From an uncultured Candidatus Saccharibacteria bacterium (lineage in GTDB: Bacteria; Patescibacteriota; Minisyncoccia; SW-4-49-11): a DNA stretch of 64,000 nt. Shown piece by piece: positions 11,886 through 40,342 of this stretch. The notes under the pieces were generated by a model. The model was not told the DNA's origin and did no database searches. It saw only the letters and a list, made by a program, of their open reading frames with translations. Position numbers and translations under genes: made by a program. Each line of letters opens with the position of its first letter. The stretch's first letter is position 1. The stretch spans positions 2,670 through 66,669 of the forward strand of contig CAZYEN010000029.1 in NCBI GenBank assembly GCA_964646465.1. Direction: 5' to 3'.

Positions 11886-11928
11886 AAATGGGTAGAATAA
11901 TTATATAATCGATTAATGAATATCTAAT

Positions 11929-17903: not shown

Positions 17904-17984
17904 GATTTTGATTTATGTATTTTTGTCTCACTTAAAAGGTAAAAATATGCTATAATACAAACAACCATTAAATTCTCATAATCT

Positions 17985-18587
17985 ATGAAAGGAGTAGTCT
18001 ATATAATGACAACAGTAGTCGATGGACTAATAAAAATAGGACAGACAGGCAGTCAAAATTATCAAGAAAGGATGAGAAATCTAGAATCAAATGGATACTA
18101 CAATGTCTCAGGACTAAAGAGATTTTTTGCAATTGAACTAGAAGATTATATTTACAAAGAAAATCTACTCAAAGAAATTTTCAATAAGCATAGAGTAGCA
18201 GATAGTGAACTATTCGCCTTAGACTATGATTTGGTAAGGCAATTATTACTATCTTTTGAAGGTAACCTAATATATCCAAAAGACATAGACAAAGAAAAAG
18301 AATTTGATGAAGTAGCAAAATCCAGAGAACAAAGTGCAAAATTTAGTTTTTATAAAAAAGGCATACAAAATGGAGAAGGAATTGTCTTCATAGCCGACAA
18401 AGATATAACAGCAAAAGTAGTAGGGGAAAGAGATGTAGAATATGGGGGACAAATTTATAAACTATCTCCATTAACCCTTAAAATATATCAACAAAAAGGT
18501 AATAGCAATAAAAGTGGAGCCTATCAAGGAGCCGCCTATTGGCAATATAAAGGAAAGAAATTAAAAGATTTACCGGATAGGGAGTAG
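17985..18587 (+). CDS. GIY-YIG-like T5orf172 domain protein with a DUF4357-like C-terminus
   Basis: GVVYIM...GLIKIGQT matches the T5orf172/MUG113 motif G.vYil...g.iKIG.T. An extended -10 TGcTATAAT lies at 17948-17956. Confidence 0.5.
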   Translation: MKGVVYIMTTVVDGLIKIGQTGSQNYQERMRNLESNGYYNVSGLKRFFAIELEDYIYKENLLKEIFNKHRVADSELFALDYDLVRQLLLSFEGNLIYPKDIDKEKEFDEVAKSREQSAKFSFYKKGIQNGEGIVFIADKDITAKVVGERDVEYGGQIYKLSPLTLKIYQQKGNSNKSGAYQGAAYWQYKGKKLKDLPDRE

Positions 18588-18638: not shown

Positions 18639-19004
18639 TTATTCTTCAATCTTTGAATCTTTTTTTACTGGGTCTTTGTGCTTATCTAGTATCTGATATA
18701 CTCTTTGTCTAGTTATTTTGTACTTTTTGGCTATATCTTTAACTGACATATCAAATAAAGTATAATCTTTAAGTATTTTTAAGTGGTTATCATTTGCAAA
18801 CTTAGAGATATATATTTCTTTCTTCTTACTTTTGGAGTTGTTATGATATCTATCGACTATTTCCTTGTCGTATAATTTGACCCTTTCGCCTGTTTTCTTG
18901 AAGTATATAATCATTTCTATATTTACAAAAGTTGTAGTGGTTATAAGTTGCTTTTTAGCCTGCTGTGTATAATAGTCTTTTCCGTTTACATTTATTATAT
19001 CCAT
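18639..19004 (-). CDS. Small helix-turn-helix DNA-binding protein
   Basis: The C-terminal MSVKDIAKKYKITRQRVYQIL is HTH-like. Confidence 0.45.
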   Translation of the reverse strand: MDIINVNGKDYYTQQAKKQLITTTTFVNIEMIIYFKKTGERVKLYDKEIVDRYHNNSKSKKKEIYISKFANDNHLKILKDYTLFDMSVKDIAKKYKITRQRVYQILDKHKDPVKKDSKIEE

Positions 19005-19329
19005 ATTGTTAAGTTATTCATATAATTTCCTGCTTTTTCTACTACATTATATATTTCATATATCCAAACAGATTATGATTAATAATTAACCATATAATGT
19101 ATTATTATACTATACTTTTTTAAATAAAAAAGACCAGATAAACCTAAGTCGGATATATCTAGTCCTGTGCGTTGTCTAGCTTGTAACTAACTAACAAAAA
19201 AGTTACATAAATAATTTATCATAAAAAATAACAACAGTCAATAATTTGTATGGGATAAGAATGAAGTATAGTAGAGTAGATATTAATTTAACATAATGGC
19301 TTTTACGCACCTTAAGACGGAGTTAGAAT

Positions 19330-19450
19330 TTAGATTTGAACTATTTCACCCCCCTTTTTTTAGGAGGGGGTGCCTGAAAGGTAGGGGGTGGATTGCTTTT
19401 TGTCTCCCTTAGGAGGGAGTACCCGTAGGGGGAGGGAGGACAGAAAGCAT
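19330..19450. repeat. GC-rich hairpin repeat cluster. It contains a 44-bp unit (19398-19440) that recurs inverted at 30903-30946
   Basis: The hairpins cacccc...ggggtg, ctccct-tagg-agggag and ccc-gta-ggg are present. ttttgtctcccttaggagggagtacccgtagggggagggagga matches the rc of 30903-30946 with two mismatches. Confidence 0.6.
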
Positions 19451-19547
19451 TCATAATTTACAATTTATAACTTTATTATCTCATCTAGTGCCAATATTGA
19501 CAAAATATATTATTCCTGTTAATATATTTTCATATTCTACATATGTA

Positions 19548-19580
19548 GCGTCCCCCCTAGAGATAGGGGGCTTTCTTTTT
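19548..19580 (+). terminator. Hairpin gtcccccc-tagagata-ggggggc followed by a T-rich run. It is preceded by a TTGACA-17-TAATAT element at 19497-19525
   Basis: The hairpin is seen directly in the sequence. It is oriented as a plus-strand intrinsic terminator, and it also sits immediately 3' of the minus-strand MazF-like gene. Confidence 0.35.
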
Positions 19581-19980
19581 ATAATTTATATAATTTTTTA
19601 AATTGAGCTTTTATTTTTTTAGTGTCATTAACATCAATTCTACCAATTTTATTTTGTAGTCTTCTATAATCAATTACTCTAATTTGATGTAGACAAGCGA
19701 CCATATTTAGTTCTTTATGAATGAAATGTACAAACCAAGATCCAGATTTTATTTTGGTTGAAGTTGGTATAATTAAAAAGGTATGGGGAGAGAGTTTTTT
19801 GAAAATAATAACTGGTCTTGTATATCTGTTAGATTTACCACTAATTTCAGTCCCGATATTTTCTCCTAAATGAGCCCACCACAAGTCTCTTTCTGAAACA
19901 AAAGGAGGTTTGTGATTATTATTATCTAGTTTTGGTTTTAAAAGGAACCAAGCTTGGAAATTTTTTATAAATGTTTTCAT
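19579..19980 (-). CDS. MazF/PemK-family toxin (mRNA interferase), apparently solitary
   Basis: ERDLWWAHLGENIGTEISGK..RPVIIF ... IIPTSTK ... LHQIRVIDYRRLQNKIG parallels MazF, which reads GDvw.vdf.p..G.E..g.RPvlV...TS...qirtiDk.RL. No antitoxin ORF of at least 60 aa lies upstream. Confidence 0.6.
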   Translation of the reverse strand: MKTFIKNFQAWFLLKPKLDNNNHKPPFVSERDLWWAHLGENIGTEISGKSNRYTRPVIIFKKLSPHTFLIIPTSTKIKSGSWFVHFIHKELNMVACLHQIRVIDYRRLQNKIGRIDVNDTKKIKAQFKKLYKL

Positions 19981-20100
19981 ATATATTAGCTACTCTTTTT
20001 ATATTATACCTTTAAATAATTTCAAAGTAAAATATAGGAGAGGGAGAGAATATAGTTCCACCCCGTCAGTCAAAGCCTGCCACCCCTCAAAAGGGGAATT

Positions 20101-20128
20101 CTAAAATAATGTCGGCGAGGGCACCGAC
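20101..20128 (-). terminator. Intrinsic terminator downstream of the V-ATPase D-subunit gene
   Basis: On the minus strand, gtcggtgccctcgccgac is followed by auuauuuuag. Confidence 0.4.
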
Positions 20129-20158
20129 TCTACGAATTCATCATTTACAATTATTCTC

Positions 20159-20773
20159 CTACAATCCCAAAATTTCTTTGACTTTCATTATGGTGACTTT
20201 TTCTTGGCGGGTGAGTTCGTCTAGGGAGTTTTGGATGGATTTGAGATTGGTTTTCATCTCGGGGATGATGACATATTCTAGGGCATTGACTCGTCTTCTG
20301 GTGGCTTCTATTTCCTCAGCTAATAGCCTGGCGGTGAATTCTATCTCAGCTAATTTTACTAACAGGGGTAGTATATTTTGGATTGTTAAGAGGGATTGGT
20401 CTAAATCTTTGGGTGTGCCTAAAGTTCCATATTGGAAGGGGTCTCCTTGTAAATGAGGGATTATATGTGGGATGGTCACTCCCATAATAGATTTTTTTTG
20501 TAATTCTAGATAGGTCTTGGCTTGGGAGAGATGGATTAGTTCATTGATAGCTTCGGTTGAAATTTTGGTCTGAGCGAATTGAAATAATTGTATTGCTTCT
20601 ACAATTTTGGGAGTTAATTCTCCTCTTAGCTTGATTACTTCTTGGATAATGGCTAAAAACTCTTGTATTAGTCCATCTCTTTTGTCGGTGAGCAAACCAT
20701 GTCCACGAGAAGCGGTTTTAATCTTCTTTTTGAGCTTGAGGGCTTCTTGTCTGGTCGGTTTGACGGCAGGCAT
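20159..20773 (-). CDS. atpD: V/A-type ATP synthase subunit D
   Basis: The N-terminus has a subunit D-like profile, the protein is 204 aa, and it occupies the last position of the operon. Confidence 0.85.
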   Translation of the reverse strand: MPAVKPTRQEALKLKKKIKTASRGHGLLTDKRDGLIQEFLAIIQEVIKLRGELTPKIVEAIQLFQFAQTKISTEAINELIHLSQAKTYLELQKKSIMGVTIPHIIPHLQGDPFQYGTLGTPKDLDQSLLTIQNILPLLVKLAEIEFTARLLAEEIEATRRRVNALEYVIIPEMKTNLKSIQNSLDELTRQEKVTIMKVKEILGL

Positions 20774-20775
20774 AT

Positions 20776-22161
20776 TTATTTGGAATACTTATCTATAAAT
20801 TCGGGCTTGATTTTCTTTAGTTCTTTTCTCGGTAATATTGATAATAATTCCCAAGACAAATCTAAGGTGTCTAGAATGGTTCGGTTTTCTCGTCTTCCTT
20901 GCCTTATATATCTACTCTCAAATGCTTCAGCGAATTTGATATAGGCTTTATCTGTCTCTGATAGGGCTGATTCTCCTAGGATTAAGGCTAATTCCTTGAT
21001 TTCCATACCTTTGGCATAGGAGGAGGCCATTTGCTCTTTGACGGCGGATAAATCTTCTCGGCTGTATTTTTTATCTACGCCAATTCGGGATAATGATCCA
21101 ATTGGTTGGATTGGAGGGTATATTCCTTGATTATGTAGCTCTCTATTGACCATAATTTGGCCTTCTGTGATGTATCCGGTTAAATCTGGTATTGGATGCT
21201 GCTTATCATCATCTGGCATTGTAAGGATAGGGATTTGGGTGAGTGACCCTGTGGATCCTTTGACTATTCCTGCTCTTTCATACAGGGTTGCAAGGTCGGT
21301 ATATAGATATCCTGGATATCCTCGTCTTCCTGGAATTTCTTTTCTAGAGGCTGAGACTTCTCGGAGGGCATCAGCATAATTGGTCATATCTGTTAGGATG
21401 ACTAATACATGCATATTCTTCTCAAAGGCTAAGTATTCTCCTAGAGTGAGAGCTAATCTTGGTAGGGTAATTCGCTCTACAATTGGGTCGCTAGCGGTGT
21501 TGATAAACAAAGCTGCTCTCTCCATCGCTCCGGTTTTTTCAAATGAGTCTATGAAGAATTGAGCTTCTTCAAAGGTGACTCCCATAGCTGCAAAGATTAC
21601 TACGAAAGGTTCTTCGGCTTTGACTAAATCTGTTCCATTTTGTAGGGCTACAACTTGGGCTTGTTCAGCAATTTGGGTGGCTATTTCAGAATGTGGTAGT
21701 CCTGACCCTGAGAAAATAGGTAGTTTTTGTCCTCTTACTAGGGCATTTAGTCCGTCTATGGTGGAGATTCCAGTTTGAATAAATTCACTAGGGAATTGTC
21801 GCATTCCTGGATTGATAGGGGAGCCATTGATGTCTAGATATTTCTCAGCGATTATTTCTGGTCCGCCGTCTTTGACTTTACCAGCTCCTGTGAATACTCG
21901 TCCTAACATACTGTCTGAGACTCCAAATTTGAGAGTTTCTCCTAAGAAGGCTATCTCGGCATTCTTTACATCTAATCCGTCGGTACTAGTGAATAACTGT
22001 ACTACAGCGGTGTCTTTGCTGGCTTCTAGTACTCGTCCTTGTCGGATTTGTCCTTTTGAGTCTCTAATTTCCACCATTTCCTCGAAGGCAACTTGTGGGA
22101 CTTTCTCAACTACGACTAGGGGTCCGGCAATTTCTTTGATTGTGTTATACCATTTCTTCAT
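20776..22161 (-). CDS. atpB: V/A-type ATP synthase subunit B
   Basis: A 461-aa non-catalytic B subunit, highly conserved throughout. Confidence 0.9.
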
Positions 22162-22170
22162 ATAATTATC

Positions 22171-24003
22171 CTAAATTCCACTTATTACTTTATTGATACC
22201 AAAGTCCTCGGATTTATCATTATCTTTGAGATTTTGAATTGTGCTTGAGATATTTTCTATTAGAGACACTATATTCTCAATGTCTGATTCTGGAGTATTT
22301 TTGAGTCTAGCAATTTCTTCACGAATTGGTAGGTCTAGGATATCATTTATCTCAATTTGAGGATTATTTTTGGCGGTTTCAGTGGCTTCATTATGGAAGG
22401 TCATCATTGCTTTTAGCATCAAATACATTTTACGAGTTGAGGCAAAGGCATCAATTTCATCAAAGGCATTTTGTTGTAGATAATCTTCTCGAAGTCCTCG
22501 AGCTGTATCTAGGAGTATTTTCTCAGAGGTAGATAGGGCGTCCATTCCTACTAATTTTATAATATCGTCTAGCTCATTTTCTTTCTGTAAAATTTGCATT
22601 GCTAAATCTCTTAGGTCTTTCCAATCTGAATCAGTTGCATTGATGAAATATTCTTCTACATTATCTTTGTATAGGCTATAACTATTGAGCCAATGAATAG
22701 ATGGAAAATGTTTTTTGGCGGCTAGAGATGCATCTAATCCCCAAAAAGCTTTGGTCACTTTAAGAGTGGCTTGGCTAACTGGTTCAGATAAGTCTCCACC
22801 TGGAGGTGATACGGCTGCAATGATAGTGGCTGACCCAATTCTTTCTTCTGTTCCTAATGTGCTGACTATTCCGGCTCTTTCATAAAAGGCTGAAATTCTA
22901 GATCCAAGATAGGCAGGATATCCTTCTTCTCCTGGCATTTCTTCTAGTCTTCCTGACATTTCTCGCATAGCTTCTGCCCAACGAGAGGTTGAATCGGCCA
23001 TCATAGCTACATTGTATCCCATATCTCGATAGTATTCAGCTAAGGTAATACCTGTATAAACTGAGGCTTCACGAGCTGCGATTGGCATATTGGAGGTATT
23101 GGCAACTAAAATCGTTCTTTCCATCAAAGGTCGTCCAGATTTTGGATCTTTAAGGTGTGGAAATTCTACCAATACATCGGTAATTTCATTTCCTCTCTCT
23201 CCACAACCTACATAAACTACAATATCTGCATCTGACCATTTTGCTAATTGATGTTGAATAACTGTTTTTCCAGCTCCGAATGGTCCTGGTACGGCGGCTG
23301 CTCCTCCTTTTGGAATTGGGAAGAATGTATCTATAATTCTTTGTTGAGTTATTAGTGGAGTAGTTGGCACTTGTTTTGCTTTGTATGGTCTTGGGGTTCT
23401 AACTGGCCATTTGTGCATTAATTGGACTGGGTTTTCTCCAATTGTAGCTATTGTCTCGGTAATTGTGAATTCTCCTGCCTTGATATCCTTAACTTCTCCC
23501 TCTACTCCAAATGGAACTAAAATCTTATGAGTAATTAACTCGGTCTCTTGTACTGTACCTAATATGTCTCCAGTGGTTACAGAGTCTCCTTTTTTGACTA
23601 ATGGCTTAAATTCCCATTTCATCTCTCTGTCTAGGCTAGGAGCGGTTAAACCTCTTGCAATATATTCAGCATTCAATCCTTGGGCAGCTGCTTTCTCAGC
23701 AATTACATTTAGAGGTCGTAAAATTCCATCAAATAATCCAGAGGTCAAAAGTCCTGGGCCTAATTCAATACTAAGGGGCTCTCCAGTTGAGACAACAGGC
23801 TCTCCTACGATTAGACCAGAGGTGTCCTCATAGACTTGAATGGAGGCTGTATCACCTTTTAATTCAATGATTTCCCCCATTAATTCTAGATTTCCAACTT
23901 TCACTAAATCATACATTTTAGCTCCTTTCATGGAGTCTGCGATAACTAGTGGTCCTGAGATTTTGATGATAATTCCGGTATTCATAGTAATTAGTTTAAT
24001 CAA
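22171..24003 (-). CDS. atpA: V/A-type ATP synthase catalytic subunit A
   Basis: Walker [10 protein letters not shown], 610 aa with the A-subunit-specific non-homologous insert, and the ERGNE region. Confidence 0.92.
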
Positions 24004-24323
24004 GAGTTGAATAATTTGTCTAGGCTCATACCTACGGCTTTCTCGGTCAGCTGCTTTAGCTCCTCAACAGAGTTGCTATCTGAGCTAATAGGTAGCTGTG
24101 ATATAGGTATATTGAGGGAATTGAGAACTTTTCTTTGCTTGGTAGATAATATAATGTTGGATGCTATAAAGATAATTGCGTACATCTCTGCATCTTTCTG
24201 GATATTAGCTATTATCTGATCTATTTCCAAGTCATCACTATTCAAAGTTTCAAAACCAAATAGTTTAAATAGTAGTGTTATTTCAGTATCAGCGATTAGA
24301 GCTGGCTTTTTATAGTCTATCAT
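24000..24323 (-). CDS. atpF: V/A-type ATP synthase subunit F
   Basis: A 107-aa ORF with the N-terminal LIADTEI..LF.L.G profile, in the F position of the operon. Confidence 0.7.
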
Positions 24324-25258
24324 ATATTGGAATAATCTATAAATCTTAATTGAGCCTGTTTAGAATCAATTTGTTTGGAGTGGTGTAGAATCAATAATTT
24401 AAAGTTAGTAATTGTATATTGGAGCCTCTCGGTATATTGTATAATTCTATCCCCAGACATCCCTGTAAATTGAGCTTTACTTAAGGCTTTGATCTCATTT
24501 TTAATAAGGGTGTTTTCAATGTTTATTGTGTTAATATCTACCGGAGCTAGATTTAGATATTGGCCTATATCTCCTAACACATCTCCAAAACCAAAGCTTT
24601 TTACAGCATTTATAGCCAGACTTCCCTGAATAGGTAATAAATGTCTTAATATATGTTCTTTTGACTGTCCTTTTTGAGTTCTTGTTAAAACATTGAGTAG
24701 GGTATAGCTATCTATTTTAGCTAATATAAAATCCTTCATTATATCACTACTTCTGTTTAGGTTTTCAAATAGTAGAGTTAAAAATATTTCTTCTAAATAA
24801 GAGATTAGGCTAAAGCTATCTTGTGAGTGAATAAGTTTTTCCTCTTTGGCTAATAATTTAGACTTGAACTGTGCAGAATAATATAGTTTATCAGAGACTT
24901 CAGTTAGAATTTGTTCAAACCCTTTCTCTCCAAGTGTCTCCCCATAAATAGTTTTATTAATAGATAGTGTTTTGAGTTTTTCAAAGTCTTGAGACATCTT
25001 GAGATAAATAAAGGGGGCAGAGTTCTCTGGCAAAAGGGATAGGATTTCTGTTATTTGTTGGTGATAATACTGATTGAGTTTATTTATTAAATTTTCTAAA
25101 TTGAGTTCGGCTAGACCAAAGGACTCTCGAATTGTATTTAGAATTACTTCGATACTATCAGTTACTAAAAGTGCTTTAGTCGTATTAGACTCAGGTAAAT
25201 AACTTAGTCTAGTTACGTATCTACTAGTTACACCAATTAGAGGGACTTGTAAACTCAT
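24320..25258 (-). CDS. atpC: V/A-type ATP synthase subunit C (d)
   Basis: A 312-aa helical protein in the operon position between E and F. Confidence 0.7.
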   Translation of the reverse strand: MSLQVPLIGVTSRYVTRLSYLPESNTTKALLVTDSIEVILNTIRESFGLAELNLENLINKLNQYYHQQITEILSLLPENSAPFIYLKMSQDFEKLKTLSINKTIYGETLGEKGFEQILTEVSDKLYYSAQFKSKLLAKEEKLIHSQDSFSLISYLEEIFLTLLFENLNRSSDIMKDFILAKIDSYTLLNVLTRTQKGQSKEHILRHLLPIQGSLAINAVKSFGFGDVLGDIGQYLNLAPVDINTINIENTLIKNEIKALSKAQFTGMSGDRIIQYTERLQYTITNFKLLILHHSKQIDSKQAQLRFIDYSNI

Positions 25259-25791
25259 ATTTCCTTCATTATGGCAGGTAGTGTTTTTTGTTTTACTTTA
25301 TCAAGAATATCCTCTACAGTAATTTCTAAATTCACCTCATCTAATTTAGCAGTGATGGCTCCTAAGTTAGAGCCTTGTTCTAGGTTATTTTTTTTATACC
25401 CTAGACTTTGAGTAATGCTTGCTAATTCTTTAGAGTAGTTGCCACTTATATTTAAAGTTGTAGAATTGGGGATATCTTTTAATATCTTTTGGATTGAGTC
25501 TTTTACAAAGTTTGAGTTTATAATCTCTGGTATTATATCCTTATAAATAGAGTTAAGTTGAGTTTGGATTGAATAACCGTAGTTAAACTTTTGAGTTTTA
25601 CTTTGTTGAAATTTATGGAAATTAATTTGAGTTGCCACTGCCTCGTCAATTTTCTCGGCATGTATTTTTTTAGTCTCAGATACGACTCTGTCCCAAGTGT
25701 TTTTAGTCTCTTTTAACTCTGCTTGATACTGAGCCTCTAACTTCTTAACATCTTTATTTATCTGAGATTGTATTGAATCTGCTAAAGTCAT
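25255..25791 (-). CDS. atpE: V/A-type ATP synthase subunit E (peripheral stalk)
   Basis: A 178-aa ORF with an N-terminal coiled coil and a globular C-terminus, correctly placed in the operon. Confidence 0.7.
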   Translation of the reverse strand: MTLADSIQSQINKDVKKLEAQYQAELKETKNTWDRVVSETKKIHAEKIDEAVATQINFHKFQQSKTQKFNYGYSIQTQLNSIYKDIIPEIINSNFVKDSIQKILKDIPNSTTLNISGNYSKELASITQSLGYKKNNLEQGSNLGAITAKLDEVNLEITVEDILDKVKQKTLPAIMKEI

Positions 25792-25792
25792 A

Positions 25793-26308
25793 TTATCCTA
25801 CTGATACTCCGTTAATAATCAAAATAGAAACTAGAAGTCCGAACACAGCGAAAGTCTCTACCAAGGCTGCTAGAATAATAACTTGTCCAATTTTAGATTT
25901 ATCTCTAGAAATTAACTGTACACCACTGGCGATTACATCTCCTTGATATTTACCTGAAGCTAAACAAGTAAGTCCGACTGGAATTCCTGCAAAAGCCAAA
26001 ATCATACCGTTCTGCCAACTTAAATTTGCAAATTCACCAGATAAAACTCCTGTGTTTTGTAAAATCAGCACAGCTGCCAAAAGTCCATAGATGGCCTGGG
26101 ATCCTGGAAGAGCAGACAACAAAAGCACATTCCCAAATTGAGAATCATCTTCCGCTACCAATCCTGCTCCGGTTTTTCCTGCTGTAGATACTCCAATAGA
26201 TGAACCAGCACCAGCCAATCCTGCTGCAAGGGCTGCTCCTAATACTGCTAAACTTACTCCTAATATTTCCATATTTTCAACTTTAACTCTTATATAAGGG
26301 ACACTCAT
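25793..26308 (-). CDS. atpK: V/A-type ATP synthase proteolipid subunit K (c)
   Basis: A Gly/Ala-rich four-helix proteolipid of 171 aa. Confidence 0.85.
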   Translation of the reverse strand: MSVPYIRVKVENMEILGVSLAVLGAALAAGLAGAGSSIGVSTAGKTGAGLVAEDDSQFGNVLLLSALPGSQAIYGLLAAVLILQNTGVLSGEFANLSWQNGMILAFAGIPVGLTCLASGKYQGDVIASGVQLISRDKSKIGQVIILAALVETFAVFGLLVSILIINGVSVG

Positions 26309-26376
26309 TGTTTACTGGTATCCTTTTCACTATACTCCTAATTTAACCTATGAATACAGTGAAAGAGATCACAGTA

Positions 26377-28413
26377 TTATTCAATAACACTGTACTCTTG
26401 GGATCTTGTTACTACTTGCAGTGGTCTTCCTCCAGATTGGAAGAATTTGCTGAAAAACTCTACAAAGTGTAGCCTACCAACATTGATGTAAGTACCTAAT
26501 ACATTAAGAGCTATATTAAATACATTTCCAGCTACGAATATAATTGTCATAATTATATATCCAATTATTACCCAAGCTCCACCTTTTTCTACAAACCCAC
26601 TTCCTGCTAAGTTTGCTAAAGTACCAACTACTCCTGCAATAATTCCAGTAGCAAGGCCTAGAGCTACCAACCTAGTATAGGATAGTATGTCAGATAGATA
26701 TCCTACCACTCCAAAAAAGACATCGTAAGCTCCTTTTCCAAATTTAGCAAAAATGGATTTCATTTCTCTTCCCAAAAGATATATCATCACAAATATATAG
26801 GCTATATATACATATAGTAGGGGATCAATTAATAATTTTAGGCCATCTCCTAACAACTCCATATTAATTAAAATTAGGAATATTCCGAATATTAGAGCTC
26901 CGGCCCATAGAATTGAATCTAGACTGGCATCTAAAAAAGATTTAGAGTTATAAGCTTGAACTATATTGAGCACCAAACCAAATAGTAAATGTACTATTCC
27001 AAGAACGATTGTGAATCCCATTAAAGCGATAACACTATCCATTGGGTTAAGAATCTGCATCTTTTGTAAGAGAGGAATCAAACCAATGTTGATTAGAAAT
27101 TTCATATGTGGTGAGGCTGTAGCAGGATCTACAACATCTGGTGTAATCCCAAACCAACTACCAAATAAAGCTCCAATAATCAATGTAGAGATAGATGCAA
27201 TAAATACAACTGCAAAAATATCTCTAATACCTGATTTTAATCTAGGATTAATTAATCCAAGTCCTGTCAAAATAATCAAAATAAGAGCATACCCTGCCTC
27301 AGATAAAGCCAAACCGAACATAAAGGTGAAGAAAATTGCAATAGACAGGGTAGGGTCAATTTTACCGGCTTGTGGATACCCCATGATTTTTGTGACTGTC
27401 TCAAAATGTCTAATTATTGGAAGGTTCTTCAGTATCACTGGACTTGATTCAAAGTTTGCTGGTAACTCAACTACCTTGCCACTATCAGTGATTTTAGATA
27501 CTGATTGTCTGACAGAATCAAATTGTTCTTCATCTACCCATAATTGTATTGATGAGTTTTCTTCGGATTCTGGATTAAATGAATGTAAATAAGAAATTAA
27601 ATTCAGGTGTGAGTTTAGCACGTCAACTAATATAGCTAAATCCTTGAATTTGACGGGCGATTTTTTAAGTTCTCGTCTTAATTTAGTTAATAACTTATTA
27701 TTTGAGTTAAGCTCTTGTTTACTATTGTGATAAATGTCATAGAAAGATCCACTGACTTCGGCTGGGAATTGTATTAATGTTGCTTGATTCTGTATTATGT
27801 CAATGGCAATTTTAACTTGATTCTTCGGTAGTGCTAAAATATATACGTAATCAGTTCCAAGTTTTTTTACGGATTCCAGTACCATAGGAGATACCGCATG
27901 CTCTAATTGTTCTGCTATATAATGTGCTCTAGACTCGTCTATCAAAAATGGTAAAAAGCTAATGTATGAGTATGATTTAAAGATATTTATTTCAATATCT
28001 TTTAATGGTTCAGATTTAGCAATAATGTCCTGTAGAACCTCCTGACGTATTAGTAGGTCATCTTTTAGCTCTGCCTTCTCTACAATCTCCTTAGCCTTTA
28101 TAATAATATTATCTTTTTCTTTATCATAATGTTCAAACACATCTTCAGTTATACTAAATCTATCATCTAGTACGGCAGAAAGCATTGACTTTTTTTCTAA
28201 ATGGTATTCTTTATATACATCTAGAGCTTTATTGACTATATCTAAGTTTTCTAAAATATCTTCTTGTATAGCATGATGTTTCTTAGAAAGTGGTGTTCTT
28301 TCTACTTTTTCTATTATTTCACCAACTTGTTGTTTTTGAAAATATGATAACAGTTCGAGTTGATGTTTGTTAGGAACTGTAACTTGGATTAGTTTAGATG
28401 CTTTAACTCCCAT
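26377..28413 (-). CDS. atpI: V/A-type ATP synthase subunit I (a)
   Basis: A 678-aa ORF with a soluble N-terminal half and a C-terminal half of 7-8 TM helices, placed second in the operon. Confidence 0.85.
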   Translation of the reverse strand: MGVKASKLIQVTVPNKHQLELLSYFQKQQVGEIIEKVERTPLSKKHHAIQEDILENLDIVNKALDVYKEYHLEKKSMLSAVLDDRFSITEDVFEHYDKEKDNIIIKAKEIVEKAELKDDLLIRQEVLQDIIAKSEPLKDIEINIFKSYSYISFLPFLIDESRAHYIAEQLEHAVSPMVLESVKKLGTDYVYILALPKNQVKIAIDIIQNQATLIQFPAEVSGSFYDIYHNSKQELNSNNKLLTKLRRELKKSPVKFKDLAILVDVLNSHLNLISYLHSFNPESEENSSIQLWVDEEQFDSVRQSVSKITDSGKVVELPANFESSPVILKNLPIIRHFETVTKIMGYPQAGKIDPTLSIAIFFTFMFGLALSEAGYALILIILTGLGLINPRLKSGIRDIFAVVFIASISTLIIGALFGSWFGITPDVVDPATASPHMKFLINIGLIPLLQKMQILNPMDSVIALMGFTIVLGIVHLLFGLVLNIVQAYNSKSFLDASLDSILWAGALIFGIFLILINMELLGDGLKLLIDPLLYVYIAYIFVMIYLLGREMKSIFAKFGKGAYDVFFGVVGYLSDILSYTRLVALGLATGIIAGVVGTLANLAGSGFVEKGGAWVIIGYIIMTIIFVAGNVFNIALNVLGTYINVGRLHFVEFFSKFFQSGGRPLQVVTRSQEYSVIE

Positions 28414-28443
28414 ATAAATTTATATATTTACAAAATATGATTA

Positions 28444-28713
28444 TTAATTTAACTGACTTAAAATGATAGCTTTGATTTTTTGAATATCTAGCTTGATATC
28501 AGGTTGTTTAGAATCAGTAGATTGTTTTTCATAAGTAGATAACTTTTCTTCTACAATTTGATTCTTGTTCAAAATCTCTTTTTTTAAAATAGTTACTTTA
28601 TCTTTAGACCGAGTAACATATTCTTGAGATTGGACATTATAGTCTTTTTGTAAAGATTTCTTTTTACTAGCAAAAGACTTTTCAATTTCAATCAACTCAA
28701 CAAGTTTTTTCAT
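28444..28713 (-). CDS. Small coiled-coil protein, probable V/A-ATPase subunit G/H (peripheral stalk)
   Basis: An 89-aa charged helical protein encoded by the first gene of the operon. Confidence 0.4.
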   Translation of the reverse strand: MKKLVELIEIEKSFASKKKSLQKDYNVQSQEYVTRSKDKVTILKKEILNKNQIVEEKLSTYEKQSTDSKQPDIKLDIQKIKAIILSQLN

Positions 28714-28734
28714 AGGTGTTTATAATTACAACTC

Positions 28735-28763
28735 ATTATAGTCCAGAGAATCACATTTGTCAA
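28735..28763 (-). promoter_or_regulatory. Consensus sigma-70 promoter TTGACA-17-TATAAT driving the V-ATPase operon
   Basis: The minus strand reads ttgaca aatgtgattctctggac tataat. Confidence 0.5.
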
Positions 28764-28793
28764 TTATTTATTTTGTTTTTGTGTCAAATAGAA

Positions 28794-30239
28794 TTATAAA
28801 AAAAACTTTTTACGAATGATTTCATCCTGTTCTCTTTGCTTTTCTTCGATTAAATTGATGGCTTTAATTTTGAGGTCTTTTAGGTCTTGGGTGGCAAGTG
28901 CTTGGGATTGTGATTTGAGGTATTCAATATAATTTTTACTAGGGTCCTCTAAAATTTCAGCTAATAGCACATTGAGAATTATTCCTATAATTGGCCCAGG
29001 TTTAATATTGAGTTCATTTATCAAGATATTGCCATCAATTTTGAGCATGGATAAATCTATTGGGTCTAATAAAACCTTCTCAGTCATATATTCAAAGTGA
29101 CGTAGGCGATAGGGGCGGGCCTTTGGCGTACCTGATCCTATACGATCACATTCTCGCAGTTTAATCAAGTCTTTGATATTCTCAGCCCCTACATTACGTA
29201 CTAATTTACGAATTGAGGTCTCTGTAACTTCATTAGTATCATAGTAAAACATATGGTATCTAACTAGTTTAGAGATTCTAGCTGAAAACTTTTTGGGATA
29301 ATGTAATCTGTTCAAAATATCATAAGCCATACTGGCTCCTACTATTTCATGATTATGAAAGGTACAAGTTTTCCCAATACCTTCTTTGGTGCGGGGTTTG
29401 GCAATATCGTGTAGTAATCCGGCCATTCTTAAATCAAAACTCCAATCCATATCACAAGCATGTTGCATAGTTCGTAGTAAATGTTCCCATACGTCATAAA
29501 TATGATGCCCATTTTGCTCTACTCCAATACCTTCCTCTAGTTCTGGCATAATGTAGTGTAGTAGTCTGCTATCTCTGAGCAGAATATATCCATTCATAGC
29601 TCGCGGAGTCAGCATCATTTTGGTGAGTTCATCCCGAATTCTCTCTTGAGCAATATGTTTTAGATTTGGTGCTAACTGTTGTATAGCCTGTAAGGTTTTA
29701 GATTCAATCACAAAATCTAATTGCACAGCAAATCTCACAGCTCGCATTAGTCTCAAGGCATCTTCATTAAATCTATCTTGGGGCTCTCCCACCGTACGGA
29801 TGATTTTGGCTTGAAGGTCATCTAAACCTCCAAAAAAATCCTGAATTTCACCTTGTCTATTCATTGCAAGAGCATTTACAGTAAAATCTCGACGAGCTAG
29901 GTCTTGAGATAGTTCAGACACAAATTCTACTTGCTCAGGGTGTCTATTATCTGTATATTGAGACTCCTCACGGTAGGTTGTAACTTCAATAATCTCCACC
30001 GATTCATCAGGACGGCGATATTTTACCCCCACTGTGCCAAAAGTATTCTCATACACAGAGTCGGGGAATAGCTCTTGAATTTGTACAGGTAGGGCATTGG
30101 TAGTAATGTCCCAGTCTACGGGAGTTTTATTACCTAATACTAAATCTCTCACACTACCTCCAACGATAAAAGCCTCAAAACCAGCTTCTTCTAATGTGTG
30201 CAGGATGAAAAGTATGTGATTCGGTATATTATAATTCAT
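28794..30239 (-). CDS. cca: CCA-adding tRNA nucleotidyltransferase with an HD domain
   Basis: The head motif GGSVRDLVLG..DWDITT, the RFAVQLDF motif and the HD region LLHDIAK. Confidence 0.85.
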   Translation of the reverse strand: MNYNIPNHILFILHTLEEAGFEAFIVGGSVRDLVLGNKTPVDWDITTNALPVQIQELFPDSVYENTFGTVGVKYRRPDESVEIIEVTTYREESQYTDNRHPEQVEFVSELSQDLARRDFTVNALAMNRQGEIQDFFGGLDDLQAKIIRTVGEPQDRFNEDALRLMRAVRFAVQLDFVIESKTLQAIQQLAPNLKHIAQERIRDELTKMMLTPRAMNGYILLRDSRLLHYIMPELEEGIGVEQNGHHIYDVWEHLLRTMQHACDMDWSFDLRMAGLLHDIAKPRTKEGIGKTCTFHNHEIVGASMAYDILNRLHYPKKFSARISKLVRYHMFYYDTNEVTETSIRKLVRNVGAENIKDLIKLRECDRIGSGTPKARPYRLRHFEYMTEKVLLDPIDLSMLKIDGNILINELNIKPGPIIGIILNVLLAEILEDPSKNYIEYLKSQSQALATQDLKDLKIKAINLIEEKQREQDEIIRKKFFL

Positions 30240-30258
30240 AAAAATTTTTGATAAATTG

Positions 30259-30335
30259 TGGAGCCAATGGTGGGGATCGAACCCACGACCTATGCGTTAC
30301 GAATGCATTGCTCTACCAGACTAAGCTACATTGGC
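30259..30335 (-). tRNA. tRNA-Thr (anticodon CGU) with encoded CCA
   Basis: The rc reads GCCAATG-TA-GCTT-AGTCTGGTA-GAGC-A-ATGCA-TTCGTAA-CGCAT-AGGTC-GTGGG-TTCGATC-CCCAC-CATTGGC-T-CCA. I folded this cloverleaf by hand. The anticodon is CGT. Confidence 0.85.
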
Positions 30336-30393
30336 GCACTTTTAGTATAGTCTAAAATAGCTATTAGAGCAATATATAAATAAAAGCCCCCGA

Positions 30394-30741
30394 CTATCTT
30401 AGTGGGGGCTTTAATCTTTGAATTCTTGTGTTTGACCTTAATAATTTTGTATTTCTACGTATCAACTTGTCAATTAGACGATATATATTATCATCTAGTA
30501 AGATTGATATTTGAGGCATCTCAGAACATTGTTCTATTTGGTGGCGAATATGACTTATTGCAGAGTCTATAGTATTAATAGAGTTTCCACTTTTACCAAT
30601 ATCTCGTTGATCATTTTGAGTGATTATCTTTTCTAAACCTGATAAACTAGAAACTGAGATAGTCTTGGATTCTTTAGCTCTTTGTAATAGTTGAAGAATT
30701 TTATTCCATTGTTTATATGAATAAGTGCGTGAGGTCGACAT
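30394..30741 (-). CDS. Hypothetical protein
   Basis: A 115-aa ORF with a GAGG ribosome-binding site 5 nt upstream of the ATG. Confidence 0.45.
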   Translation of the reverse strand: MSTSRTYSYKQWNKILQLLQRAKESKTISVSSLSGLEKIITQNDQRDIGKSGNSINTIDSAISHIRHQIEQCSEMPQISILLDDNIYRLIDKLIRRNTKLLRSNTRIQRLKPPLR

Positions 30742-30819
30742 GAGACTTTCCTCTGTAGATTGGTATTTAGACTATCAAAATCTAAGTTTTATGTCAAATT
30801 ATGATTTATGTCCTCCTTT

Positions 30820-31020
30820 GGAGGAGGTGGCACGAAGTGGCGGTGGTGTATTAGGTTTAATATTATTACAAACAAGTGTTTATTTTAGTATTTCAAAATT
30901 TATCCACCCTCCCCCTACGGGTACTCCCTCCGAAGGGAGACAAAATATCAAATACAGGAGACTGCAAGGTCGCCCCTACGGAAAAACATTATGGAGGGGT
31001 AAACCCTCCGCTACGAGAAA
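30820..31020. repeat. GC-rich hairpin repeat cluster, an inverted copy of the 19330-19450 family
   Basis: The hairpin tcctcc-aaa-ggagga is present. tccaccctccccctacgggtactccctccgaagggagacaaaa (30903-30946) is the reverse complement of 19398-19440. An internal partial duplication (gtaggggcgacc...agtctcc) is also visible. Confidence 0.6.
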
Positions 31021-31044
31021 AAAAAGCCCCGCTGAGTGCGGGGC
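31013..31044 (-). terminator. Intrinsic terminator (gccccgcactcagcggggc plus U8) downstream of the GC-rich gene
   Basis: The hairpin and T-run are seen on the minus strand. Confidence 0.55.
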
Positions 31045-31065
31045 TTGAGTTGTAGGATCGGTGTC

Positions 31066-31632
31066 TCAGGAAGCCATGAGATCAAACAGAAGTTGGTACC
31101 ATTGATCGAGACCATCATTCAGGAGCTCCAATGCTTGGTCATCGATCACCTCCATCACTGGGGGGTGAGGTTTCCCGATGATGGCTGGTTTGCTACCTAG
31201 TTCTTCTCGGACACTCTCCCAATATGAGGCCGTCTTAGTTGAAAGCTGGAAACGTTCTCCAAGGAAGGTGGTATCCATTGAGGGCACCTGCCCAGGTAGG
31301 GTTCTATTAAACTCATTCCGCTCCTCCTGAGCGGCGAGAGACACCAAAGCCTCACGGGCTTTGGTGGCCTGCCCGTAATCAATACGGGCTAGATCCCGTT
31401 CGAGCTCTATGAGCTCAGCACTTCTGTCGCACCAAGGCGACACAAGTCGGTAAAATTCCACCAGCTGAGTGAGAGGAGTTCCTCCATGACTACGGAGAGA
31501 TAGGGCAGTATGAGTCCCTGTAGCTTTCTTCTTCAAGTGTTCCAGCTTCTGCTCCACTTGAGCAGAAGAGGTTCCTAGCGAGCGAAGTCGCTGAGGAATA
31601 TGAAAATTGGAGAGGACTGTGGTGATAGCCAT
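31066..31632 (-). CDS. Hypothetical protein encoded in a ~50% GC island
   Basis: A strong AAGGAG ribosome-binding site lies 8 nt upstream of the Met at 31632. Sampled lines are 45-57% GC, against about 28% for their neighbours. No motif was recognised. Confidence 0.5.
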   Translation of the reverse strand: MAITTVLSNFHIPQRLRSLGTSSAQVEQKLEHLKKKATGTHTALSLRSHGGTPLTQLVEFYRLVSPWCDRSAELIELERDLARIDYGQATKAREALVSLAAQEERNEFNRTLPGQVPSMDTTFLGERFQLSTKTASYWESVREELGSKPAIIGKPHPPVMEVIDDQALELLNDGLDQWYQLLFDLMAS

Positions 31633-31711
31633 TAGGCTAACTCCTTGTAAAATGTACAGAATTAACCATACCACAAAATCAACAAAATGTCAATATATAT
31701 AGACAAATATT

Positions 31712-33127
31712 TTAAGATTTTATAATTACACTTTGCCCGTCTTTATCCTGGATGGTATAGCCTAAATTAGATAATTCTTGTCTTAGTTTGTCAGCTTGTG
31801 CAAAGTCTTTATTAGCTCGAGCTTGATTGCGTTGATTAAAAATTTCTACTATCTCAGCGGGGATTGAGGTTTTGGTGAGGGGTAAATCTAGAGCCAGTAC
31901 TCGCTCTAATCTCTGGAACAATTTGAGTATATGGCGTCTTGGGATGGGCTCTTGTGCGTCTATTGCTGTGTTGACTTCTTTTATAAACTCAAACATAAAA
32001 GCAATAGCCTTTGGGGAGTCTAGGTCAGAGAATAGGGATTTTTTGAAATTATTATAAGTATCTCGGATTAATTTTTGGAGTTTTGGGTTTTTGCGATGGG
32101 GTTTGACTAAATTCACTCTATTAATAAAGTCTATAATTCGCTGGCGTGTTTGTTTGGCTTGCTGTAATGATTCCCAAGAAAAATCTATATCGGAGCGATA
32201 ATGTGCCATCAAGACCAATAATCTTAAATCTAATGGGGAATAGCCTTGAGTAATAATATCATCTAGGGTTATAAAAGTTCCCGCTGATTTTGACATCTTA
32301 TCTGTGTTGATAGTTAGAAAATAGTTATGAAGCCAATAATTAGCCATTGTCTTGCCAGTATCTGCTTTGAACTGAGCTATTTCATTAGTATGATGAATTG
32401 GGATATGGTCTTTGCCTCCTGTATGTATGTCAAATGGTGCATGAAGCAAGGAATCTGCCATTACCACACATTCAGAATGCCAACCAGGGAATCCAATACC
32501 CCAAGGGCTATTCCATTCCATTTGTCTTGTCTCTCCTTTAGGTGAGAACTTCCATAGAGCAAAATCTGAGGGGGATTTTTTCTCTCCCATCTCAACTCTA
32601 GCTCCAGCCTCTTGAGCTTGTAATTTTAAGTGAGCAAAGTCAGAGTATTCTTGTAATTTGGTAGTATCAAAGTATACTCCATCACTTGTAATATAGGTAT
32701 AGCCCTTTTTTTCTAATCTTTTGATTAAATTTATTTGCTCTCTTATATATTCGGTAGCTTTAGGGTAGTGATCGGATGGAAGTACATTAAGCTTAGCTAG
32801 ATCTTCTTGCCAGAGCTTAGTATATTTGATTGCTACTTCTTGGGCGGTAAGTTGTTCTCTTCTGGCTCCTTTTTCTAATTTATCCTCACCAGTGTCCTCA
32901 TCACTAACTAGATGTCCTACATCAGTAATATTAGTGACGGAGTAGACATTATAATTATGTAATTTTAGAGTTCTTTTGAGTAAGTCGTCAAACAGAGATT
33001 TTCTTAAATTTCCAATATGTTGCCTGTCATACACGGTTGGCCCACAACTATATATAGAGACTCTTTTGGGGTGAATGGGTTTGAATGGTATCACTGCTCG
33101 GGCTGGAGTATTATAAAGTTTAATCAT
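31712..33127 (-). CDS. cysS: Cysteinyl-tRNA synthetase
   Basis: The HIGH-type motif CGPTVYDRQHIGN and the KMSKS motif. Confidence 0.9.
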   Translation of the reverse strand: MIKLYNTPARAVIPFKPIHPKRVSIYSCGPTVYDRQHIGNLRKSLFDDLLKRTLKLHNYNVYSVTNITDVGHLVSDEDTGEDKLEKGARREQLTAQEVAIKYTKLWQEDLAKLNVLPSDHYPKATEYIREQINLIKRLEKKGYTYITSDGVYFDTTKLQEYSDFAHLKLQAQEAGARVEMGEKKSPSDFALWKFSPKGETRQMEWNSPWGIGFPGWHSECVVMADSLLHAPFDIHTGGKDHIPIHHTNEIAQFKADTGKTMANYWLHNYFLTINTDKMSKSAGTFITLDDIITQGYSPLDLRLLVLMAHYRSDIDFSWESLQQAKQTRQRIIDFINRVNLVKPHRKNPKLQKLIRDTYNNFKKSLFSDLDSPKAIAFMFEFIKEVNTAIDAQEPIPRRHILKLFQRLERVLALDLPLTKTSIPAEIVEIFNQRNQARANKDFAQADKLRQELSNLGYTIQDKDGQSVIIKS

Positions 33128-40227: not shown

Positions 40228-40342
40228 GAATATAGTGTATATATTAAAATTATATCATAAAACACTAAAAATAACAAATTTACGGGCTATATTGAACATA
40301 GCAATTTTTATATTTGTGATTAATATGATATAATATTTTTAT

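Follow-up and report, generated by a model that had tools for sequence, protein, structure and literature searches.

Inverted hairpin repeats around a V-ATPase operon in Candidatus Paceibacterota likely belong to a dispersed, REP/BIME-like family related to whalefall-1

A 64-kb stretch of contig CAZYEN010000029.1 (assembly GCA_964646465.1, positions 2,670 to 66,669), referred to here as the window, carries two GC-rich hairpin sequences in inverted orientation on either side of a V-ATPase operon. We find that these sequences are copies of a structured repeat unit that is shared by many related genomes of the candidate phyla radiation (CPR). The units likely constitute a family of dispersed extragenic palindromic repeats resembling repetitive extragenic palindromic (REP) sequences and bacterial interspersed mosaic elements (BIMEs), in which the inverted pair represents ordinary copies and not the ends of an element. 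A reading made from the sequence alone had called the repeats REP-like or like miniature inverted-repeat transposable elements (MITEs), and this description holds insofar as they are dispersed, strictly extragenic, multi-copy palindromic repeats in many related genomes. Homologs of the window's CCA-adding enzyme (CCA) put it in Candidatus Paceibacterota, within the Parcubacteria of the CPR. What is new here is a REP/BIME-like family that is related to the Rfam family whalefall-1 (RF01762), has a new host lineage, and has a shortened second hairpin.

A repeat unit with two hairpins and a conserved tail

The longest inverted repeat of the window pairs 19398-19440 (+) with 30903-30945 (-). Its 43-nt arms agree at 41/43 bases (95% complementary), and 11,462 nt separate them. 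The sequence-only reading had described 44-bp copies with two mismatches and a right arm reaching 30946; the copies and both mismatches are real, but the repeat is 43 nt long and its right arm ends at 30945. In a blastn-short comparison the pair matches at E=7.7e-15, with no further significant match among the five regions that had been listed as repeat-bearing. The GC content of the window is 33%, and the repeats sit within conspicuous GC-rich islands. Both arms had been said to lie inside larger GC-rich multi-hairpin clusters, which the sequence and fold of the two clusters bear out.

Each arm corresponds to a unit of ~45 nt that begins with 5' TGTC, runs through two hairpins, and ends in a conserved, unpaired, G-rich tail (GGNGGTGGA). 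Hairpin 1 is a 6-bp pyrimidine/purine stem with a UNGG loop. Hairpin 2 has 3-6 bp and is variable in sequence with strong covariation; its loop is often a GNA triloop or a tetraloop. The sequence of the window unit is UUGUCUCCCUUAGG.AGGGAGUA, then CCCGUAGGG, then GGAGGGAGGAC; in the left copy these parts are TGTC, hairpin 1 (CUCCCU/AGGGAG with a UAGG loop), hairpin 2 (CCC-GUA-GGG), and the tail. At least six sequence subtypes (A-F) are built on this one plan, and further subtypes are found in the flanks of type A copies.

We built a covariance model, R1, from an alignment (A2) of 40 representatives of subtypes A-F and searched the window with filters off. The model recovers exactly five members in three intergenic regions (19350-19442, 20055-20101, and 30808-30943; Table 1), and the next match scores 11.5 bits. 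Two of the members are the arms of the inverted pair, both of type A. The right arm is identical in a contig from the same metagenome (L001; L numbers denote the contigs and loci compared) and forms a convergent doublet with a type B unit, the 48-nt AT-rich spacer between them (30853-30900) being homologous to doublet spacers in other genomes. It is this type B unit that had been taken for a partial internal duplication at 30820-31020: the two units are related, but type B is a distinct subtype and stands in opposite orientation to type A. Similarly, a copy proposed at 20040-20100 shows no BLAST similarity to the unit, yet by sequence plus structure it is a type C member, situated between the V-ATPase operon terminator and a MazF-like gene. 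The fifth member is a degenerate type D-like unit in tandem with the left type A copy and immediately upstream of it. A further copy proposed at 722-900 is rejected, as the region matches the unit neither by BLAST nor by covariance model and holds a small GC-rich open reading frame (ORF; 740-905, -) with its own consensus promoter and terminator.

Three hairpins that carry a GTAG tag accompany these units in the window, and two of the three types recur in other genomes. The first, after V-ATPase subunit D, is also an intrinsic-terminator-like site, and the other two, beside the right arm, are unrelated in sequence to the type A/B units. The order GTAG hairpin, type A, type B is common to the window and to the orthologous region of a close relative (L237, 9448-9595).

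The paired structure is well supported by the alignment of 40 sequences, in which 90% of cells are paired, although the search patterns required hairpin 1 and thereby inflate the hairpin-1 statistics. Hairpin 2 was unconstrained by the patterns. All six of its pairs show compensatory changes on both sides, with a covariation score of 0.53 against 0.19 for shuffles and 0.11-0.15 for slid partners. A long-range fold that joins the 5' arm to the tail, which RNAfold chooses for single copies, was discarded: one of its pairs is unpaired in 33/40 sequences and the others vary almost solely via G·U. Across the stem pairs, G·T (25) and A·C (23) are about equally frequent, a lack of strand asymmetry that gives no sign of selection on one transcribed strand.

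Copies and arrangements in related genomes

A pattern spanning hairpin 1 and the tail matches at least 119 stretches in the JGI metagenomes, with 135 exact matches within those listed, and a narrower pattern matches at least 114 stretches in species-representative genomes. The 38-nt form present in the window occurs in metagenome-assembled genomes (MAGs) named Candidatus Parcubacteria, Paceibacteria, or Paceibacterota, and also in Saprospiraceae; longer forms occur in Balneolaceae, Schleiferiaceae, Cryomorphaceae, Sphingobacteriales, and other Bacteroidota. Among the matches listed there are 70 distinct cores, and one identical 38-mer core recurs in 31 different flanking contexts, so that the 41/43 identity of the window pair reflects conservation at the level of the family. 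Copy number is high in single genomes, as in REPs, with at least 12, 14, and 9 exact-pattern loci in three related MAGs (JBEAQD01, CALMJI01, and JBIKVS01, respectively). R1 finds 237 matches in 716 kb of genome loci. It finds 145 in the 346 kb made up of Paceibacteria loci plus the window, and 141 in the 282 kb of Paceibacteria loci. These densities are inflated because possession of a copy was the basis on which the loci were selected. No copy among the 145 lies inside a long ORF, and all five window copies are intergenic.

Copies tend to assemble into larger structures. Among 68 pairs of neighbors within 200 nt of each other, 32 are convergent, 23 tandem, and 13 divergent, and the convergent A/B doublet is the commonest arrangement (19/68). 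In the predicted DNA fold of this doublet the AT-rich spacer is closed by pairing of the complementary G-rich tails, and the two strands of the doublet fold about equally well (-17.6 and -18.4 kcal/mol). In longer intergenic regions, subtypes A-F and the GTAG-tagged hairpins make up mosaic clusters. A tandem array of at least 10 A/B doublets (more than 20 alternating units) with a 135-nt period extends to the contig end at L122 10015-11264, and a Schleiferiaceae chromosome (L142) has a comparable one whose period is 171 nt. Metagenome assemblies break at the repeats, as contigs L239, L237, and L122 all end in them.

The A-spacer-B doublet (~135-145 nt) invites comparison with MITEs, of which Correia/NEMIS, RUP, and BOX are bacterial examples. 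Both are small, dispersed, and non-coding, have inverted ends, fold stably, and are at times co-transcribed with adjacent genes. The doublet might have arisen by deletion from an insertion sequence (IS) of the DDE type, with ~40-nt imperfect terminal inverted repeats (TGTC...GACA), and be moved by the transposase of that IS. It does disperse as one unit, since the whole window doublet, spacer included, matches nine loci at 71-78% identity over 155-212 nt, and its presence varies between orthologous intergenic regions (L097 compared with window 11886-11928; L180 and L237 compared with window 40228-40342). However, the inspected doublets have no flanking direct repeats that would represent a target-site duplication, the A/T flanks belong to the palindrome itself, and the 1.7 Mb of loci showed neither a parent IS nor a matching autonomous element. 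The organization is also modular and variable and not that of a fixed element: single units, tandem units, units of other subtypes, and long alternating arrays are all common, and BIME-like assembly fits them better. We therefore regard a MITE origin of the doublet as quite improbable.

The genes next to the repeats are diverse. A survey of 61 adjoining ORFs returned RhuM, Fic/DOC, Bro-N, and components of type I restriction-modification systems, together with housekeeping genes, and there was no transposase in the 25 families listed. The orientation of genes relative to the units varies, with both orientations occurring. Homologs of the helix-turn-helix (HTH), small, and GC-rich ORFs that adjoin the window clusters were not found near repeats in other loci. 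Phage and plasmid collections gave no match to the doublet; one match in a viral contig, inside a GC-rich coding region, was taken as chance.

Relationship to whalefall-1

In a permissive Rfam scan, the type A copies of the window match whalefall-1 in the orientations expected of the pair (left +, 22.6 bits; right -, 22.1 bits). These scores fall short of the RF01762 gathering threshold of 37 bits, at which the window has no match to the family. The seed of whalefall-1 follows the plan GUAUCUCCCCUCGG.GGGGAGAC, a second hairpin, and then AGAGGGAGGAC, and it comprises 16 sequences of two subtypes, with inverted pairs on the same contigs (Weinberg et al. 2010, PMC2864571). The family described here has the RF01762 architecture: the loop of hairpin 1 is of the UNGG type, another hairpin follows, and the 3' tail is purine-rich and conserved. 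The likeness extends to the GU(A/G)UC lead, the pyrimidine 5' arm of hairpin 1, and an unpaired tail of the AG(A/G)GGNGAGGAC type, and the last 10 tail nucleotides of the left window copy are those of seed sequences. Inverted pairing is likewise common to the seed and the window family, and the Balneolaceae members are multi-copy doublets. The two differ in hairpin 2, which is ~9-13 nt in the window family and ~22-24 nt in the seed, and in host, the window belonging to a CPR bacterium (Paceibacteria) and not to Bacteroidota. They also differ in designation, as the Rfam entry is a small RNA (sRNA) gene and the present data point to a dispersed repeat.

Bona fide members of RF01762 (38-75 bits) are present among the loci recovered by pattern, both in metagenome contigs and in several MAGs of Balneolaceae. 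Nearly all of them are inverted doublets 25-31 nt apart, and a single 8-kb locus has three doublets. R1, though built solely from Paceibacteria subtypes, detects these members, including partner copies that the pattern had not selected, and so the relationship between the window family and whalefall-1 holds in both directions. The Balneolaceae form of the family is Rfam whalefall-1. This points to whalefall-1 being a dispersed repeat that comes as inverted doublets, and not a conventional sRNA gene. In our literature search we did not find whalefall-1 described beyond the 2010 paper; the present comparison ties this orphan family to CPR repeats and adds Balneolaceae to its hosts. In two Balneolaceae genomes (L153 4382-5045 and L155 3156-3991), a whalefall-1 doublet adjoins the RNase P RNA gene.

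The repeats as a REP/BIME-like family

Several features liken the units to REPs, BIMEs, and REP doublets forming hairpins (REPINs). They are short, imperfect palindromes, strictly extragenic, present in many copies, and of several subtypes per genome. Units in opposite orientation lie close together, giving rise to larger folds, mosaic clusters, and alternating arrays, and the A-F units of the window are accompanied by the GTAG-tagged hairpins described above. REPs tagged with GTAG or CGTC are known from Proteobacteria (Di Nocera et al. 2013, PMC3733652), as are systems that couple REPs to a REP-associated tyrosine transposase (RAYT; PMC6006769). The latter paper also describes atypical secondary structures on either side of Bacteroidetes genes of subclass 2.6. 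The likeness has limits. A classical REP is 20-40 bp with a single stem, in contrast to the 43-47 nt, two short stem-loops, and conserved G-rich tail of the present unit, and the A-F units show no preference for the downstream side of genes.

Further observations weigh against a REP/BIME-like nature, in addition to the inflated densities and hairpin-1 statistics already mentioned. Weinberg et al. (2010, PMC2864571) rated whalefall-1 as likely RNA, and Rfam classes it as sRNA. The A-F units start with (T)TGTC and end with the G-rich tail, and they have neither the GTAG nor the CGTC tag that marks classical REPs. Among ORFs of at least 90 aa, in ~1.7 Mb of loci plus the window, a crude scan for HUH/Y motifs returned one IS200-type TnpA (L082), which is not flanked by repeats. 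Of this genome only the 64 kb of the window, with its five copies, were examined. By crude ORF calls in ascertained loci, the element occurs in 19% of unidirectional, 21% of convergent, and 29% of divergent intergenic regions. Type A copies are co-oriented with the upstream gene in 65 cases against 36, a mild bias, and read on the G-rich strand in 24 against 11; many of these loci are orthologous, so that neither set of counts is independent. Finally, the near-invariance of the 38-mer and the conservation of the unpaired tail would be compatible with a functional RNA or a site of protein binding as well.

The main rival is the one originally proposed for whalefall-1, namely that the units are functional structured RNAs, whether whalefall-1-like small RNAs or cis-acting elements, that are read from TGTC toward GGA and interact through the G-rich tail. 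Covarying hairpins, stable loops (UUCG-like, GAAA, and CUUG), very strong sequence conservation, and the mild co-orientation of type A with the upstream gene would all agree with such a role, as would the existing sRNA classification. In the window, the left cluster lies between a promoter-like site (19302-19329, +) and a + strand terminator (19553-19580). On the other hand, the units occur in many copies and several subtypes per genome and in mosaic arrays, in both orientations to neighboring genes, and in all three kinds of intergenic region. There is also no G·U excess over A·C, the strands of the doublet fold equally, no T-run follows the unit, and the window copies score below the RF01762 threshold. 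Taken together, we judge functional RNAs to be unlikely, and a REP/BIME-like repeat family to be the reading that the evidence favors.

By analogy with REP/BIME and REPIN systems, the units would behave as non-autonomous palindromic DNA that folds into hairpins in single strands and in any read-through transcript. Their multiplication and decay in intergenic DNA would depend on a trans-acting enzyme, for which a RAYT-like Y1 HUH enzyme is the leading candidate, and recombination between copies probably contributes too. Effects on transcripts, such as protection of 3' ends or help with termination, would be secondary. Our literature search found no description of REP- or MITE-like repeats in CPR bacteria, and the present data indicate that the small and gene-dense genomes of CPR bacteria (Paceibacteria) have a rich stock of structured, REP/BIME-like repeats.

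A broader possibility is that all units with the double hairpin and tail form one cross-phylum superfamily, spanning CPR Paceibacteria and Bacteroidota and including whalefall-1. They would then be more than passive REPs, namely recognition sites of an enzyme or binding protein that reads the TGTC lead and the GGNGGTGGA tail, and would drive cassette exchange and genome rearrangement in streamlined CPR genomes. We consider this speculative and, on balance, unlikely. If it were true, the sharing of the units with Bacteroidota could reflect DNA traffic between epibionts and their hosts.

The V-ATPase operon between the inverted copies

The sequence-only reading held that the inverted pair delimits a laterally transferred 11.5-kb block with the V-ATPase operon. 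In such a reading, the pair would either be the ends of a composite transposon or mark the crossovers of an invertible segment, with tRNA-Thr, CCA, the V-ATPase genes, and MazF as the cargo. An inverted repeat of this quality (41/43) with arms 11.5 kb apart speaks for this idea, and the 121-aa ORF beside the left copy has a resolvase-type HTH_7 match, albeit below the cut-off (E=4e-4). This is the sole near-match to a transposase or recombinase: Pfam finds none in the 40 ORFs scanned (16.7-40.2 kb plus the left 17 kb). There is also no target-site duplication, as no direct repeat of at least 4 nt occurs at any of five candidate boundary pairs.

Gene order in relatives also speaks against a mobile block, as genomes with CCA 84-91% identical keep the operon in the same place. 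The closer of these (L237, CCA 91% identical) has T2SSE, TsaE, PfkB, FemAB, VanW, cysteinyl-tRNA synthetase (CysRS), a small ORF, tRNA-Thr (read directly from the sequence), CCA, three small ORFs, V-ATPase subunits I to D, and a methyltransferase. Its repeats lie in the CysRS-CCA intergenic region and upstream of T2SSE, and there is none downstream of subunit D, so that synteny is kept without the downstream copy. The contig that encodes P0013 (CCA 84% identical) has the same order, and past V-ATPase D it continues with three small genes and then the P-type ATPase that is also present in the window. In L097, the P-type ATPase and V-ATPase D genes are oriented to each other as in the window, and the 7 kb that separates them holds unrelated genes. 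The uninverted arrangement of the window is also that of two further assemblies of this organism (L001 and L239), and look-ups of the 115-aa and MazF proteins likewise gave solely this arrangement, with no inversion or alternative junction.

The repeats themselves show no association with the block, as the same 38-mer recurs in dozens of unrelated contexts, with at least 9-14 exact-pattern loci per related MAG and both orientations represented. The two observations that the sequence-only reading had itself named as grounds against it, namely numerous copies of variable orientation unconnected with the block and an unchanged gene order in relatives, have both been made. The composite transposon or invertible segment is thus already largely refuted, and we hold it to be extremely improbable. 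The two 43-nt arms are two subtype A copies and not the ends of one element, and their bracketing of the V-ATPase operon is coincidental. This removes a false lead, in that the repeats do not flag the operon as a mobile block.

A distant relative adds a further observation on the operon. A 1.17-Mb contig with CCA 65% identical (L238) has CysRS and CCA but no V-ATPase at the locus, an absence that could be cited in favor of a mobile block, and it has no repeat units in 21 kb. Since this contig lacks both, the V-ATPase operon and the repeat family are each patchy within the Paceibacteria group. An older gain or loss of the operon, not linked to the repeats, is possible.

Variable segments and cassette borders

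The segment that does differ between relatives lies at 14.7-20.1 kb in the window, from the P-type ATPase to V-ATPase D, which is outside the bracket. Within it, the MazF-like cassette (19449-20039) is 95% identical to a locus in a Paceibacteria MAG (L197) with a different gene context, as compared with ~73-84% identity in the long syntenic matches to the window. Homology to this locus stops at clusters of hairpin modules on both sides, and these clusters differ between the two genomes in composition and orientation. Repeat clusters also lie at synteny breaks upstream of T2SSE in L180 and L237. Since clusters are found where synteny breaks and where accessory cassettes, for example the MazF-like gene, begin or end, they probably act as hot spots for recombination and insertion, or accumulate at such hot spots. 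Comparison of filled and empty orthologous sites gave no precise insertion boundaries, the intergenic sequences being too diverged or rearranged. As markers of breakpoints and accessory-gene borders, the repeats should be useful for MAG curation and for studies of CPR genome plasticity.

A stronger version of this idea would make the repeats the recombination sites of cassette exchange, functionally like the attC sites of integrons, that shuffle small accessory genes such as the MazF-like toxin. The MazF cassette, with repeat clusters on both sides in two different contexts, could be an instance of such shuffling; L006 has three copies ~1 kb apart, each with a conserved flank, and the neighbors of the repeats include RhuM, Fic, Bro-N, and restriction-modification genes. 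Yet no integrase or recombinase was found nearby, and the clusters around the two MazF copies differ both in their modules and in how these are oriented. Many of the clusters and arrays enclose no gene, and the repeats often adjoin housekeeping genes. Dedicated cassette exchange is therefore very improbable.

Gene context and further observations in the window

The coordinates of the repeat members and of the genes around them are collected in Table 1. At gathering thresholds, tRNA-Thr is the sole Rfam match over the window. Past V-ATPase subunit D, the order is a terminator-like hairpin, a repeat, the PemK/MazF-like ORF, a repeat cluster, and the 121-aa ORF.

Table 1. Repeat units, tagged hairpins, and neighboring genes in the window (scores are for covariance model R1)
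Feature	Position	Strand	Remarks
P-type ATPase gene	11929-14640		
T5orf172 ORF	17985-18587	+	adjoins the - strand block
121-aa ORF	18639-19004	-	weak HTH match
Degenerate type D-like unit	19350-19394	+	22.8 bits, E=5e-4; enlarged hairpin-1 loop
Type A unit, left arm	19400-19442	+	50.7 bits, E=1e-11
PemK/MazF-like ORF	19579-19980	-	
Type C unit (TTCCCCTTTTGAGGGG-TGGCAGGCTTTGACTGAC-GGGGTGGAAC)	20055-20101	-	36.7 bits, E=7e-8; type C consensus also in other loci
GTAG-tagged hairpin (GTAGAGTCGGTGCCCTCGCCGACAT)	20109-20133	-	from terminator scan; module recurs 8 times in loci
V-ATPase subunits I, K, E, C, F, A, B, D (in that order)	20159-28413	-	
89-aa ORF	between CCA-adding enzyme and V-ATPase subunit I	-	
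CCA-adding enzyme	28794-30239	-	
tRNA-Thr	30259-30335	-	Rfam
115-aa ORF	30394-30741	-	separated from the 202-aa ORF by the repeat cluster
Type B unit (GTCCTCCTTTGGAGGAGG-TGGCACGAAGTGGC-GGTGGTGTAT)	30808-30852	+	41.8 bits, E=3e-9; inverted partner of right type A
Type A unit, right arm	30901-30943	-	53.4 bits, E=2e-12
GTAG-tagged hairpin (GTAGGGGCGACCTTGCAGTCTCC)	30957-30979	-	27 copies of the module type in loci; just upstream of right type A
GTAG-tagged hairpin (GTAGCGGAGGGTTTACCCCTCC)	30993-31014	-	from sequence and terminator scan; directly after the 202-aa ORF terminator
202-aa ORF	31066-31674	-	no Pfam match; promoter 31665-31693, terminator 31018-31046
CysRS	31712-33127	-	

Some of these genes have features of their own. 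The 202-aa ORF has 46% GC in a genome of 33% GC, a consensus promoter, and a strong terminator, and it looks like a recently acquired single-gene cassette because the close relative L237 lacks it here. No antitoxin ORF adjoins the PemK/MazF-like ORF. Its conserved 3' flank contains a + strand promoter-like site (19497-19525) and the + strand terminator at 19553-19580, which overlaps the stop codon, and could encode a short convergent antisense RNA. The T5orf172-domain gene (17943-18579) shares 90-91% DNA identity with copies on two metagenome contigs (L067 and L071) that have no match to the window outside this gene, and it behaves like a mobile gene.

An AT-rich motif of the AATTCAYAATTYACAATT type lies between repeat clusters and gene starts at 19449-19471 and 20134-20156. 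Many Paceibacteria loci have it next to clusters as well, and it could be a promoter element or a site of protein binding. The first search pattern also caught a 37-nt repeat, TCTCCCCTCGGAGGGAGAGGRTTRRGGTGAGGGGGGA, in which a hairpin is followed by a G-quadruplex-like run. It occurs at ~45 loci within L004-L121 (for example L013, L033, and L040), on contigs of 29-71% GC, and was set aside as possibly unrelated to the family.

A different kind of repeat links the 202-aa ORF to the left end of the window. A 53-nt direct repeat containing a promoter of the TTGACA-17-TATAAT type is present at 922-974, 2664-2716, and 31657-31709, where it precedes three - strand units, namely the 55-aa ORF at 740-905, a 255-aa ORF at 1899-2666, and the 202-aa ORF. 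Two of the three, the 55-aa and 202-aa units, are closed by similar CCCCGC...GCGGGG terminators. The 255-aa ORF and the adjacent 261-aa ORF (1011-1796, -) have no Pfam match and have in common a short Cys-containing motif, and the two may be candidate paralogs.

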